From the sequence record PP400780: a stretch of 64,000 nucleotides of DNA. One strand, 5' to 3'. The stretch is from Escherichia phage FL18. Under the pieces are notes generated by a model. It saw only the letters and a list, made by a program, of their open reading frames with translations. It made no database searches and was not told the DNA's origin. Below, in pieces: positions 13,926 to 36,168 of the stretch. The position numbers were made by a program, and so were the translations under genes. How positions within the stretch are numbered: position 1 is the stretch's first letter; every line of letters begins with the position of its first letter.

Positions 13926-13954
13926 TATCAAATAAACAACCTCAAGGAAATAAA

Positions 13955-14266
13955 ATGAAAACCTATCAAGAATTCATCGCGGAAGCTACTAAAGCAGATA
14001 AAAATTTTGTTATTAACACTAACGGCCCGTTAGATGATGAATACGCTAATGCTATTATTAAGTCAATTTCTAATCAAGGCGTTGAAGTATCAAATTTCGA
14101 ATATAAGAAAAATGATACTTATATGGTAATTAGTATCAAAAAAGGTTCAAAGGCTAAAATTAAATCTGCATTTGGTGTTATGCGAGTCGACCAAATCGAT
14201 AACCACGATTTTTCACAAACAGGGGTTAAACGCCAAAATACCATTTCTTCTAAAGGCATAAAATAA
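13955..14266 (+). CDS. internal protein with capsid targeting sequence (ipI position)
   Basis: N-terminus MKTYQEFIAEA; 103 aa. Confidence 0.65.
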   Translation: MKTYQEFIAEATKADKNFVINTNGPLDDEYANAIIKSISNQGVEVSNFEYKKNDTYMVISIKKGSKAKIKSAFGVMRVDQIDNHDFSQTGVKRQNTISSKGIK

Positions 14267-14300
14267 TTTACAACACGATAGGACTATGTTATAGTAGTCC
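14266..14300 (+). promoter_or_regulatory. PeSL (core ggactatgttatagtagtcc)
   Basis: -35-like ATTTACA plus stem-loop with -10-like TATAGT. Confidence 0.5.
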
Positions 14301-14327
14301 TATCAAAACAACCAAATGGAACCTAAA

Positions 14328-14591
14328 ATGAAAACTTTCAACGAATTCATCTCAGAATCATCTGGTGTGAAAATTAACAAAGCGGTCAATCAGGTTATTG
14401 CTGATATTCTTAATTTGTATAACATTGACTTAACTCCGCATATCACGCTTGGTAACAAACGAAACTTTTTCGTATTTGACACATCCGAACTTGATGAAAA
14501 TCAGTTCAATAATATTCAACGTTTTGCTAATGATAAAGGTCTTCGACACGAGCCTGGTGGCTATAAAAAATACGCAATATATTTGAAATAA
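14328..14591 (+). CDS. internal-protein-like, CTS MKTFNEFISE
   Basis: start taken at second ATG to match CTS; 87 aa. Confidence 0.55.
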   Translation: MKTFNEFISESSGVKINKAVNQVIADILNLYNIDLTPHITLGNKRNFFVFDTSELDENQFNNIQRFANDKGLRHEPGGYKKYAIYLK

Positions 14592-16084: not shown

Positions 16085-16114
16085 TAGCCCCTTCCGAAAG
16101 GTTGGGGCTTTTTT
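16085..16114 (+). terminator. intrinsic terminator (agcccc..ggggct + T7), cassette copy 1
   Basis: hairpin with GAAA loop followed by T-run. Confidence 0.6.
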
Positions 16115-16115
16115 T

Positions 16116-16123
16116 GTATAAAT
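16116..16123 (+). promoter_or_regulatory. late promoter TATAAATA immediately after terminator
   Basis: exact TATAAATA. Confidence 0.45.
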
Positions 16124-16838: not shown

Positions 16839-16880
16839 GTTTACTTCTTCCCTAGATGTGTTACTATAGACCTATAAAAA
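16839..16880 (+). promoter_or_regulatory. PeSL (GTTTAC ... TGTTACTATAGACC)
   Basis: seen in sequence. Confidence 0.5.
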
Positions 16881-19389: not shown

Positions 19390-19727
19390 CCATATGGCCT
19401 TCTCTTGGTGAGAACATTCTAATTTTTATTATGAGTATTGGCATGGGATTTGCCTTTGGATTAGTTGGATTTCTTATTGACGGCGTTGTGTTAGGATTTA
19501 TAGGGAACACTGGTGGATTCACAGACCAATGGCAGGACTTACGGTATACCAAAGCCTTTGCATCCATCGCATCATTTTGTACTGTAGTCTATTTTTACTA
19601 CGATTTTATAAACCATAACAAGAAAAATAAAAAGGTTTACGCTTCTCAAATGATTAGTTATAATGAACTCCTAGCTAGACGTGAAAATGAAACAATCGAA
19701 AACTTTATTAAGGAATGTAGAAAATGA
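19368..19727 (+). CDS. membrane protein ending NFIKECRK
   Basis: 119 aa; SD AAGGA 7 nt upstream. Confidence 0.5.
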   Translation: MQKPQLLTIWPSLGENILIFIMSIGMGFAFGLVGFLIDGVVLGFIGNTGGFTDQWQDLRYTKAFASIASFCTVVYFYYDFINHNKKNKKVYASQMISYNELLARRENETIENFIKECRK

Positions 19728-21817: not shown

Positions 21818-21854
21818 GTTTACACAATTATAGGACTATGTTATAGTAGTCCTA
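21818..21854 (+). promoter_or_regulatory. PeSL
   Basis: GTTTACA + taggactatgttatagtagtccta. Confidence 0.55.
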
Positions 21855-24993: not shown

Positions 24994-24999
24994 GGAAAA

Positions 25000-25260
25000 A
25001 TGAAAATGTATCAAGAATTTATCGTTGAAGCAGATGCCAAAGGTCCTAAATTTAAAGTTAAAGCTTTCATTGGTGATGCGGAAGACTTTGGCTCATTAAA
25101 ACGTAATGGGTATTCTTTCTTAGGTGGCAATGGTAAAGAAATCAACACCTATGCAAAACGTAGTGAAATTGCTTATGTTGTAGCAAGTCCTAAAGTAGAT
25201 GTTGACGATATTGGATACGATTTTAACAACTTCGGAATTATTTCTGGCGGTAAAGCTTAA
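25000..25260 (+). CDS. internal-protein-like, CTS MKMYQEFIVE
   Basis: 86 aa. Confidence 0.55.
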   Translation: MKMYQEFIVEADAKGPKFKVKAFIGDAEDFGSLKRNGYSFLGGNGKEINTYAKRSEIAYVVASPKVDVDDIGYDFNNFGIISGGKA

Positions 25261-25295: not shown

Positions 25296-25325
25296 TACTC
25301 TATCAAAACAAACAAGGAAACAAAA

Positions 25326-25628
25326 ATGAAAACATATCAAGAATTTATTACTGAAGCGCGAGTGAGTGCAGGTAAATTAGAAGCCGCTATAAATAAAAAG
25401 GCCCATTCATTTCATGATTTGTCCGATAAAGACCGTAAGAAACTTGTAAGCCTTTATATTGACAAAGAGCGTATTCTCGCTCTTCCTGGCGCTAATGAAG
25501 GTAAACAGGCCAAGCCTTTGAATGCTGTCGAAAAGAAAATTGATAACTTTGCTTCTAAATTCGGTATGTCTATGGATGACCTTCAGCAAGCGGCTATCGA
25601 AGCAGCTAAAGTAATTAAAGGTAAATAA
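25326..25628 (+). CDS. internal-protein-like, CTS MKTYQEFITE
   Basis: 100 aa; SD AAGGA. Confidence 0.6.
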   Translation: MKTYQEFITEARVSAGKLEAAINKKAHSFHDLSDKDRKKLVSLYIDKERILALPGANEGKQAKPLNAVEKKIDNFASKFGMSMDDLQQAAIEAAKVIKGK

Positions 25629-25630
25629 CA

Positions 25631-25676
25631 GTTTACTTCTCCTAGAATTGTGATAGTATATTCATAATTCTAGGAG
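25631..25676 (+). promoter_or_regulatory. PeSL (11-bp inverted repeat ctcctagaatt/aattctaggag)
   Basis: GTTTAC then stem-loop containing GATAGTATA. Confidence 0.55.
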
Positions 25677-25739
25677 GGGTAAATACAGAAATGGACAATT
25701 CATGTGCCACGGAATGGCCCAACATAAAAGAGAAACTAA

Positions 25740-27652: not shown

Positions 27653-27701
27653 GTTTACTTCTCCTCTAGTTGTGTTACTATAGACCTGTCAACTAGAGGA
27701 G
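27653..27701 (+). promoter_or_regulatory. PeSL (perfect 12-bp inverted repeat ctcctctagttg/caactagaggag)
   Basis: GTTTAC + TGTTACTATAG in loop; 3' arm supplies SD GAGGAG. Confidence 0.6.
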
Positions 27702-30851: not shown

Positions 30852-30880
30852 AGCCCCTTCCGAAAGGTTGGGGCTTTTTT
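30852..30880 (+). terminator. intrinsic terminator, cassette copy 2
   Basis: agccccttccgaaaggttggggct + T-run. Confidence 0.6.
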
Positions 30881-30881
30881 G

Positions 30882-30889
30882 TATAAATA
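30882..30889 (+). promoter_or_regulatory. late promoter TATAAATA after terminator
   Basis: exact match. Confidence 0.45.
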
Positions 30890-30913: not shown

Positions 30914-31471
30914 ATGAAATTTTTAAAATATGTAAGTTGGGTTGTTCTTGTTCCTATAGATTGGATCGCAGCGATTTTAGCAATTATTCTAGCACCATTT
31001 GTAGTTCCATTCCATAGTGAAAAAACCGGTAAACTACCTTATGGCTTTGACTGGATGATGACTTACGATAATCCTATCGATGGTGACCGCGGCCATGTTG
31101 AACGTTGGTCTAAAATACGTAAAATTCCTGTTATAGGTAAATATGCTCAACGCGTAGCTTGGCTATGGCGCAACAAAGCATATAATTTTTCTTATCATGT
31201 TTTAGGTCGCGAAGCTTCATCAGAATGGCACTATAAAGGCAACGCCGAAACTAAATCTGGATCTCCTGATCCGGCACATCATGGATATCTTTTAGTTTGG
31301 AACGAGTCTGCATGGGGATTATTCGCTGCTATACCTTATCTTAAGGTTGGTGGTATTACATTTTATCTGCGTGTTTACTGTGGTTGGAAACTTAAGAGTC
31401 TTTTGAGTCGTCCTATTCCACGCGCAATGCTTTCATTCCATATCAACCCTTTACGATATTACAAAAACTAA
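30914..31471 (+). CDS. membrane protein
   Basis: 185 aa, N-terminal TM helix. Confidence 0.5.
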   Translation: MKFLKYVSWVVLVPIDWIAAILAIILAPFVVPFHSEKTGKLPYGFDWMMTYDNPIDGDRGHVERWSKIRKIPVIGKYAQRVAWLWRNKAYNFSYHVLGREASSEWHYKGNAETKSGSPDPAHHGYLLVWNESAWGLFAAIPYLKVGGITFYLRVYCGWKLKSLLSRPIPRAMLSFHINPLRYYKN

Positions 31472-31475
31472 TCAA

Positions 31476-31504
31476 AGCCCCTTCCGAAAGGTTGGGGCTT
31501 TTTT
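31476..31504 (+). terminator. intrinsic terminator, cassette copy 3
   Basis: same hairpin sequence + T-run. Confidence 0.6.
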
Positions 31505-31514
31505 GCATTTAGCA

Positions 31515-31565
31515 GTTTACTTCTCCTCAGGTTGTGTTATAGTAGACCTTACTTACTAGAGGAGA
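31515..31565 (+). promoter_or_regulatory. PeSL
   Basis: GTTTAC + tctcctc ... gaggaga inverted repeat. Confidence 0.5.
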
Positions 31566-31570
31566 ACGTT

Positions 31571-31750
31571 ATGTCACGTAAAGAAAAAATTTCTAAGTTA
31601 ATGTTTTTTATTGAAGAGTACGCTAACGCTGTATCCGATTGGGAAAATGCCCACGGGTGTGAAGACGGTGATATCGATATCAATAAGGCAATGAAAAAGA
31701 TGGCTGATACGCACACTGAATTGCAAATGTATGTTAACGAGATTATGTGA
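31571..31750 (+). CDS. hypothetical protein
   Basis: 59 aa. Confidence 0.4.
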   Translation: MSRKEKISKLMFFIEEYANAVSDWENAHGCEDGDIDINKAMKKMADTHTELQMYVNEIM

Positions 31751-31757
31751 GGATATT

Positions 31758-31964
31758 ATGCTTTACGATTATACTGGAAAATCTGAAGACGGTGTACTTG
31801 AACTTTTACCTGAAAGCGCTGAAGATGATGATATAGTGGTGATGTTTTGTAAAAATGGTCCTGGGGATAAGGGATGGATTTATCTTCGCCAAGAAAATGA
31901 CTTAATTGTTTTGGACCCTAAACAAGTTGAAGAACTTTATCAACATTTAAAATACAATCGGTAG
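31758..31964 (+). CDS. hypothetical protein
   Basis: 68 aa, SD GAGGA. Confidence 0.4.
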   Translation: MLYDYTGKSEDGVLELLPESAEDDDIVVMFCKNGPGDKGWIYLRQENDLIVLDPKQVEELYQHLKYNR

Positions 31965-32003
31965 TTTACATCTTGGTAGGACTACTATAACATAGTCCTA
32001 CCA
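31964..32003 (+). promoter_or_regulatory. PeSL with inverted core (ggtaggactactataacatagtcctacc)
   Basis: same stem as other copies but loop sequence is the reverse complement. Confidence 0.45.
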
Positions 32004-32021
32004 AAACAAATGGAGAACAAA

Positions 32022-32132
32022 ATGAAACTTTTGCTTATTGCTTATGTTATAGTACAATACAATTATCCAATGTTTACGTATAACATGGTAAATGGTGTAA
32101 TGAATCTTATTGAAGCGAGTATGGTAAAATGA
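32022..32132 (+). CDS. very small hydrophobic ORF (36 aa)
   Basis: SD TGGAG; low confidence. Confidence 0.25.
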   Translation: MKLLLIAYVIVQYNYPMFTYNMVNGVMNLIEASMVK

Positions 32133-34357: not shown

Positions 34358-34390
34358 TGTACACGCTTTTAGGATATGTTATTATAGACC
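34358..34390 (+). promoter_or_regulatory. PeSL-like early promoter
   Basis: TGTACA ... TATGTTATTATAGACC. Confidence 0.45.
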
Positions 34391-34415
34391 TATCAAAACA
34401 AGAGGAGAAAACAAA

Positions 34416-36112: not shown

Positions 36113-36146
36113 GTTTACAAGGTCTATGGTTATGTTATTATAGACC
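36113..36146 (+). promoter_or_regulatory. PeSL (ggtctat ... atagacc)
   Basis: GTTTAC + stem-loop with TATGTTATTATAG. Confidence 0.5.
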
Positions 36147-36168
36147 TATCAACTACTGGAGGTAAAAC

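Follow-up and report, generated by a model that had tools for sequence, protein, structure and literature searches.

Probable local inversion of the hairpin loop in a PeSL-type early promoter of a Mosigvirus coliphage

Results and Discussion

Gene content and architecture of the locus

The sequence that we analysed, hereafter the window, is a 64,000-nucleotide stretch of Escherichia phage FL18 (PP400780) and represents the early region (tk / mobD / nrdC) of a Mosigvirus, an RB69-like T4-type coliphage. With 2 kb of sequence spanning the hairpin described below as query, 181 phage records matched, nearly all of them Escherichia or Shigella Mosigvirus, with PHB12 as the best match (96.7%), and a 24.5-kb query gave JM17 at 98.7% and RB69 at 97.0%. 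The hairpin lies between a homolog of RB69ORF107c, for whose orthologous product Pfam DUF7189 is on record, and a small ORF of the T4 Y05J family (Phage_T4_Y05J; Pfam PF26864 on record for orthologs), which is followed by tk.1-like and mobD.1-like genes (Table 1). The TAG stop codon of the upstream gene (31962-31964) abuts the -35 element of the promoter, and the small downstream ORF encodes 36 aa when read from the ATG at 32022 or 40 aa from an alternative ATG at 32010.

Table 1. Features at and around the inverted hairpin loop, with positions in the window.
Feature	Position	Strand	Basis
Next early promoter on the 5' side, GTTTACT-16-TATAGT with TGn	31515..31543	+	promoter scan
RB69ORF107c homolog, upstream gene, 68 aa according to annotation in relatives	31758..31964	+	ORF list, ortholog annotations
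-35 element GTTTACA (sigma-70 hexamer TTTACA, 31965-31970)	31964..31970	+	unaltered by the flip; same in orthologs
Hairpin 5' arm TTGGTAGGACTA, in the promoter spacer	31973..31984	.	sequence; folds with the 3' arm
TGn + -10 module TGTTATAGT, no -35 partner	31984..31992	-	read from sequence
Inverted loop CTATAACA, exact reverse complement of the ancestral TGTTATAG	31985..31992	.	ortholog and paralog comparison
Residual -10-like hexamer TAACAT, 17-bp spacing, 9/12, no TGn	31988..31993	+	promoter scan
Hairpin 3' arm TAGTCCTACCAA, part of the AG(A/T)CCTATCAA box	31993..32004	.	sequence, promoter listing
Shine-Dalgarno GGAG (32012-32015) and small downstream ORF	32012..32132	+	sequence, ORF list, ortholog annotations
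Middle-promoter-like motif TTGCTTATTGCTTATGTTATAGTA inside the small ORF	32033..32054	+	motif match 32042-32054; SA79RD annotation

From 5' to 3' the parts of the element are arranged as GTTTACA-TC-TTGGTAGGACTA-CTATAACA-TAGTCCTACCAA-AACAAAT-GGAG-N6-ATG, where the loop together with the 3' arm would ordinarily hold TGn and TATAGT, and in its sequence context the flipped copy reads ...GTTTACATCTTGGTAGGACTACTATAACATAGTCCTACCAAAACAAATGGAG... The stem is a perfect 12 bp around an 8-nt loop. The two stem words given in the preliminary description of this locus, GGTAGGACTA at 31975-31984 (+) and its complement at 31993-32002, are present as reported, but the stem to which they belong is 12 bp long and not 10. 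The 3' arm is part of a box, AG(A/T)CCTATCAA, that is kept 3' of the -10 in many early promoters of the window. The hairpin still folds in the flipped form, with a predicted energy of -18.3 kcal/mol as RNA (z = -6.2) versus -20.6 for the forward form, and of -10.7 kcal/mol as DNA versus -10.6 for the forward form. We also considered whether the hairpin is a canonical intrinsic terminator and rejected this, as there is no U-run on either strand and the terminator scan gave no terminator-like site.

Just 3' of the element and within the small ORF, a MotA-box-like TTGCTT is followed by TGTTATAGTA (32033-32054), and the orthologous site was annotated as T4 middle-promoter-like by the depositors of SA79RD. 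The -10 of this motif is TATAGT in the window, RB69 and mar005p1, and TGTAGT in most other relatives.

The loop is inverted relative to orthologous and paralogous elements

Comparison of CTATAACA with TGTTATAG showed that six of the eight loop positions differ, the other two being unaltered by inversion, and since the stem is itself palindromic the 8-nt loop is the sole informative (non-palindromic) part of the inversion. Within the window the forward loop TGTTATAG is present in three paralogous PeSL (promoter-early stem-loop) copies, and a repeat search detected at least six related copies on the + strand. In the same search 21831-21854 came out as the perfect reverse complement of 31977-32000 (24 nt), and 14279-14306 matched the flipped copy in reverse complement at 96% over 28 nt. 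Perfect + strand matches to the 13-mer CTATGTTATAGTA lie at 14284, 20541 and 21836, and its only - strand occurrence in the window is at 31983-31995. The core that the preliminary description reported as reverse-complemented is exactly so over the 8-nt loop; however, the 13 nt that it gave as the core take in three stem bases on one side and two on the other, and lie one base out of register with the exact reverse complement. All PeSL-type promoters of the window lie on the + strand, and the outer stem at the flipped locus is of its own variant, TTGG...CCAA, as in the orthologs, where the paralogs have GATAGG...CCTATC or TTATAGG...CCTATTAA.

We then read approximately 27 distinct orthologous loci directly, drawn from INPHARED phages, IMG/VR, metagenomes and Logan/ENA contigs, and every one of them carries a forward loop. 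This is TGTTATAG in RB69, mar005p1, LF82-1, JS09, TH12, BEU50 and JM17, TGATATAG in PHB12, SF, NHEP29, SA79RD and TH58, where it is accompanied by a C/A stem mismatch, and TGGTATAG in PTE-Eco05, with forward loops throughout in the IMG/VR, metagenome, Logan and ENA contigs; the -35 is the same in the orthologous sites read. In two of these sequences, mar005p1 (OZ035759; L007/L018) and an ENA metagenome contig (L028), the 32-bp hairpin agrees with that of the window in everything save the orientation of the loop, which in both is the forward TGTTATAG. The footprint of an inversion, as first proposed for this locus, is therefore borne out, and comparison with close relatives shows a true inversion and not a divergent copy. 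Outside the loop mar005p1 differs from the window at two of the other 113 positions of a 121-nt segment, and both flanks are collinear with those of relatives up to the hairpin, at 97-99% identity.

BLAST with these 121 nt, centred on the element, returned 160 phage records with a best full-length identity of 93.4%, which corresponds to eight mismatches, six of them in the loop, and agrees with what a forward loop would give; thus no deposited relative among the 160 records carries the flip. Likewise, the flipped pattern together with its -35 had no matches in IMG/VR or genome_contigs (GTDB genome set), and pattern scans of metagenomes found no flipped copy. Looking up the exact proteins of three small ORFs nearby gave no match, and the tk.1-like 59-aa protein gave six contigs, all with forward loops. 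These comparisons show that the flip is a derived state, private to the window genome. Inversion of a hairpin of the mar005p1/RB69 type gives the observed sequence exactly, which identifies the ancestor as one of this type; a PHB12-type ancestor (TGATATAG loop, TAATCC arm) was rejected, as its inversion would give TAGGATTA-CTATATCA-TAGTCCTA, unlike the observed sequence.

Using the ~26-kb early region of ten genomes we compared every perfect hairpin with a stem of ≥6 bp and a loop of 4-20 nt, with a loop-flip test that had been tightened after an earlier version gave false positives with 4-5-nt loops. Among the 1227 hairpins tested there was no loop-flip polymorphism besides that at 31973-32004. 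When the PeSLs at 14267, 20523 and 21818 were artificially flipped and used as BLAST queries, only forward loops were found (90-158 records each), and the slightly higher identities of NRG-P0074 and RB69 in these searches were due to point substitutions in forward loops. Furthermore, of 85 window-specific 11-mer runs in 24.5 kb, reverse complementation fully accounts for that at 31975-32002 alone. A second inversion candidate, at 31670-31700, turned out to be trivially palindromic (GATATCGATATC), and PHB12 has this palindrome too. With no second case in the ten genomes or at the three other PeSL loci, we rejected the idea that flips are a recurrent property of PeSLs.

Examination of the orthologs (L001-L032) also showed that all four combinations occur at the fourth stem pair, namely TTGG..CCAA, TTGA..TCAA (compensated; L019, L026 and L032), TTGG..TCAA (RB69 and JM17) and TTGA..CCAA (PTE-Eco05). 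Mismatches of the inner stem are common, for example GGACTA/TAATCC in PHB12-type phages, and stem pairing in the orthologs appears to be favoured and not strictly required.

Predicted effect on promoter strength and direction

We next evaluated the promoter with a consensus-matching scan. The forward form, in mar005p1, reads TTTACA-17-TATAGT and scores 10/12 with a TGn (TGt-TATAGT), and the flipped form reads TTTACA-17-TAACAT and scores 9/12 overall, with TAACAT at 4/6 and no TGn; the region 5' of the promoter, CATTTAAAATACAATCGGTA, is moderately AT-rich. A listing of early promoters in the window gave 25 regex matches, of which roughly 17 are convincing. Among these, TGn stands directly 5' of the -10 in almost all, the only exception besides the flipped copy being that at 19635 (AGT), and the flipped copy alone has TAACAT as its -10. 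Promoters of the TGn/-10 class have been described previously (PMC2988021). With an intact -35, no TGn, and TAACAT in place of TATAGT at the same spacing, a weaker sense promoter is expected, and we consider that it is probably weakened and not necessarily dead.

On the minus strand, the promoter scan found no two-hexamer promoter at the flipped element. As a speculation from the motif itself, the minus-strand TGTTATAGT might, as an extended -10 promoter, drive weak transcription antisense to the upstream gene. The genes downstream would be reachable by read-through from the promoter at 31515-31543, the scan having found no terminator-like site between that promoter and the flipped element, and perhaps also by transcription from 32033-32054, and together these routes would explain why the flip is tolerated. 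A compensatory change at 32045-32054, where the window has TGTTATAGTA and PHB12, SF and LF82 have TGTTGTAGTA, was considered and rejected, as the unflipped RB69 and mar005p1 share the variant of the window.

Origin of the inversion

Taken as a whole, the reading that we consider likely is that of a PeSL-type early promoter whose loop was inverted by one local event in this genome, through a template switch, with weakening of the sense promoter. The flanks and the stem are untouched by the inversion. The inverted tract would measure between 8 and 32 bp, its breakpoints presumably being hidden within the 12-bp arms. The collinear flanks, the locus-specific outer stem and the single orientation of the PeSLs indicate that the event was confined to the element's own palindrome. 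Two 12-bp arms that are 8 bp apart cannot synapse in duplex DNA, and the accepted route is an inter-strand template switch. The most likely mechanism would be one in which the replisome makes such a switch at the hairpin, with the polymerase copying the loop off the opposite strand and then switching back inside the other arm, so that a second PeSL copy would not be needed. Inversion of the spacer of an inverted repeat is a standard outcome of template switching (PMC8604942), and template switching at quasi-palindromes was, according to work cited in PMC5941160, first shown in phage T4 (Ripley 1982; Schultz & Drake 2008). A 'loop inversion only' class of such mutations, with perfectly paired hairpins, stems that carry no footprint and loops of up to 7-8 nt, has been described by Monttinen & Loytynoja 2022 (PMC8794818), and the inversion seen here would fit this class.

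The preliminary description had proposed either an intramolecular inversion, which is borne out here, or recombination between PeSL copies in opposite orientation, and had taken the flip as direct evidence that these elements recombine. This second explanation is not supported: all PeSLs of the window are on the + strand and the sole minus-strand match to the core is the flipped copy itself, collinearity is unbroken on both flanks, and the outer stem has the TTGG...CCAA of this locus where the paralogs have GATAGG...CCTATC. For the inversion the inverted repeat of the element itself suffices, and the flipped loop says nothing on recombination between repeated elements. A form of this second explanation, in which another PeSL pairs in inverted register and donates a short patch by gene conversion or recombination, is in our view unlikely. 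The palindromic stems make such pairing feasible, and there is perfect reverse complementarity between 21831-21854 and the inner 24 nt (TAGGACTA-loop-TAGTCCTA), as well as 96% over 28 nt with 14279-14306. Recombination is avid in T4-type phages, and a role of PeSLs as sites of recombination has been suggested (PMC2839356). However, as the outer stem is locus-specific the donor tract would have to fit in 24 nt with homology arms of only 8 bp. The PeSLs of the window are all in one orientation, both flanks remain collinear, and a template just as good lies much closer, in the complementary strand of the element itself. An artefact of sequencing, library preparation or assembly at a perfect inverted repeat, with the real loop forward, seems quite unlikely to us. 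Library preparation is known to produce fold-back chimeric reads at palindromes, and an artefact would be in keeping with the flip being a singleton, absent from the ~27 loci, the 160 BLAST records, IMG/VR and genome_contigs; such reads are, however, normally a minority and rarely win the consensus, the arms of 12 bp are below the usual assembly k-mers, and the rest of the 24.5-kb region holds no other novelty of the inversion type.

We also weighed a recurrent or programmed promoter switch, in which the loop would flip to and fro in phage populations and so toggle the direction of the TGn/-10. In its favour, the flip puts an intact TGTTATAGT on the other strand and leaves a usable TAACAT at the correct spacing on the sense strand, and the geometry formally resembles an invertible promoter between inverted repeats. 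Nevertheless this is highly improbable, given that no second flip came to light in about 160 relatives at this locus, at three paralogous loci (90-158 records each) or among 1227 hairpins of ten genomes, and that a spacer of 8 bp is far too short for recombinase-mediated inversion. Independent point substitutions that happened on the reverse complement, leaving a merely divergent copy, have a negligible probability. Nothing speaks for them beyond the two of eight loop positions that inversion leaves unaltered, and they would require six changes in 8 bp, each to the exact complementary base, when elsewhere two of 113 positions differ from mar005p1; relatives show no intermediate loops, only single-base variants of the forward loop, and at a local divergence of ~2% the probability is, by our own estimate, on the order of 1e-13.

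Comparison with known elements and significance

PeSL cassettes have been described in T4-type phages by Arbiol et al. 2010 (PMC2839356) and Comeau et al. 2014 (PMC4122927). Like these, the present element lies between genes of a hyperplastic early region, recurs in the genome, adjoins small ORFans, and ends in a Shine-Dalgarno sequence and start codon, here a GGAG at 32012-32015 and an ATG at 32022 between the 68-aa and 36-aa ORFs. PeSLs have a sigma-70-type promoter that is AT-rich upstream, with a stem-loop placed between the -35 and -10 or overlapping the -10. The ancestral form of the locus has such a promoter in full (TTTACA-17-TATAGT with TGn), the flipped copy retains its TTTACA and the 17-bp spacing, and the position of the stem-loop in the flipped element matches the description in PMC2839356. 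The published PeSLs are those of RB49/phi1, PST/T4 and nt-1/KVP40 and have other stems (G-rich/C-rich in RB49), whereas the stem here is (G/T)ATAGGACTA/TAGTCCTAT(C) with no U-run after it, and in the flipped copy the -10/TGn module is reversed. The word 'inversion' is not mentioned in the two PeSL papers (PMC2839356 and PMC4122927). By its architecture the element would be classed as a PeSL, although its -10 is now a match of only 4/6 that lacks TGn.

Recombinase-driven invertible promoters, such as fimS, hin and the invertons of gut bacteria, involve segments of hundreds of bp and a dedicated recombinase, with both orientations coexisting. As in these systems, a promoter element between inverted repeats changes strand on inversion, but unlike them the spacer is 8 bp, far below known invertible segments, and relatives show one orientation only: none of 160 records is flipped at this locus, nor is any at the three other PeSL loci. 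The lack of a second orientation in relatives and the spacer of only 8 bp thus argue against a recombinase-type invertible promoter switch. Closer in scale are the minute hairpin-associated inversions of chloroplast DNA, of which Kelchner and Wendel reportedly gave the classic description in 1996. Such inversions in non-coding chloroplast DNA are among the topics covered in, for example, PMC12371153. There too short inverted repeats flank a small spacer, typically intergenic and homoplasious, that is found in either orientation in close relatives; the plastid flips recur often at the same hairpins, whereas the flip here is a singleton among roughly 160 genomes. With the 'loop inversion only' class (PMC8794818) the element shares a perfect stem, an exact reverse complement of the loop, stems and flanks that carry no footprint, a cluster of several nucleotide changes on a terminal branch, and a loop of 8 nt within the reported 7-8 nt. 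Unlike the sites in surveys of template switching, which concern rRNA, miRNA genes or coding sequence, the loop here carries a -10/TGn promoter element, so the predicted effect of the inversion is regulatory and not structural; the mechanism in our case is one that we infer.

The locus would provide a clean natural case in a T4-type phage in which inversion of a hairpin loop overturns the -10/TGn of a strong early promoter in one step. It suggests that the palindromes in PeSL cassettes are substrates for template-switch-type mutation, a process distinct from the inter-cassette recombination usually invoked for PeSLs, and carries a caveat for alignment and phylogeny, where six apparent SNPs would represent one event. 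The window phage and mar005p1 or RB69 form a natural pair for relating loop orientation to promoter strength and direction. At the same time the flip is a private variant in one genome and a known type of mutation that leaves the general picture unaltered, and as a singleton event it gives no phylogenetic replication that a flip survives selection. A wider proposal, which we regard as a long shot, is that PeSL hairpins are made, kept and occasionally flipped by template switching, a flip being a promoter re-orientation that yields an antisense promoter. If true, a flip would in one step put TGTTATAGT on the minus strand as an AsiA-immune extended -10 antisense promoter, selection for terminators would not be what makes PeSL hairpins, and a weak sense promoter would survive the flip. 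Were phage populations to contain such flips at minority frequency, a PeSL would work as a bidirectional promoter switch that is thrown stochastically.

Other repeated elements in the early region

A 33-nt intrinsic terminator, AGCCCCTTCCGAAAGGTTGGGGCTTTTTT, has copies at 30852-30884 and 31476-31508, which are 624 bp apart and 97% identical (one mismatch in 33 nt), and a third at 16086-16118. The first two bracket a 185-aa ORF (30914-31471; DUF7338 in orthologs) that is absent from seven of nine relatives, where there is a single terminator; PTE-Eco05 has both. This is the pattern of a cassette inserted or deleted between two direct repeats of one regulatory element, and this cassette indel 500 bp upstream is better evidence of cassette shuffling than is the flipped loop.

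In other early promoters of the window (25631-25690, 27653-27700 and 31515-31570) the spacer pairs with the downstream Shine-Dalgarno region. At 25639-25676 this gives a stem of 15 bp with one internal mismatch, CTCCTAGAATTGTGA / TCATAATTCTAGGAG, and at 31522 / 31558 the pairing is TCTCCTC...GAGGAGA. Such pairing would mask the Shine-Dalgarno sequence in read-through transcripts from upstream and not in transcripts from the element's own promoter; the arrangement at T4 gene e / soc / 49 is a known case that resembles it.

Of 18 early promoters, 11 have the box AG(A/T)CCTATCAA(A)AC directly 3' of the -10, as at 14297-14310, 16869-16880, 34386-34399 and 36142-36153. It is kept with or without a complementary 5' arm in the spacer, which indicates that the conserved, promoter-proximal element of the hairpin is its 3' arm, the 5' arm being optional. 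An optional 5' arm is the pattern that would be expected if stems arise by copying (template switching) from the conserved side.

Finally, four small genes start with nearly the same 34 nt, ATGAAAAC(C/T)TATCAAGAATT(C/T)ATC..., at 13951-13984, 14324-14357, 24996-25029 and 25322-25355, and each is preceded by its own early promoter. They look like a paralogous early family, arranged in tandem pairs about 330-375 bp apart.
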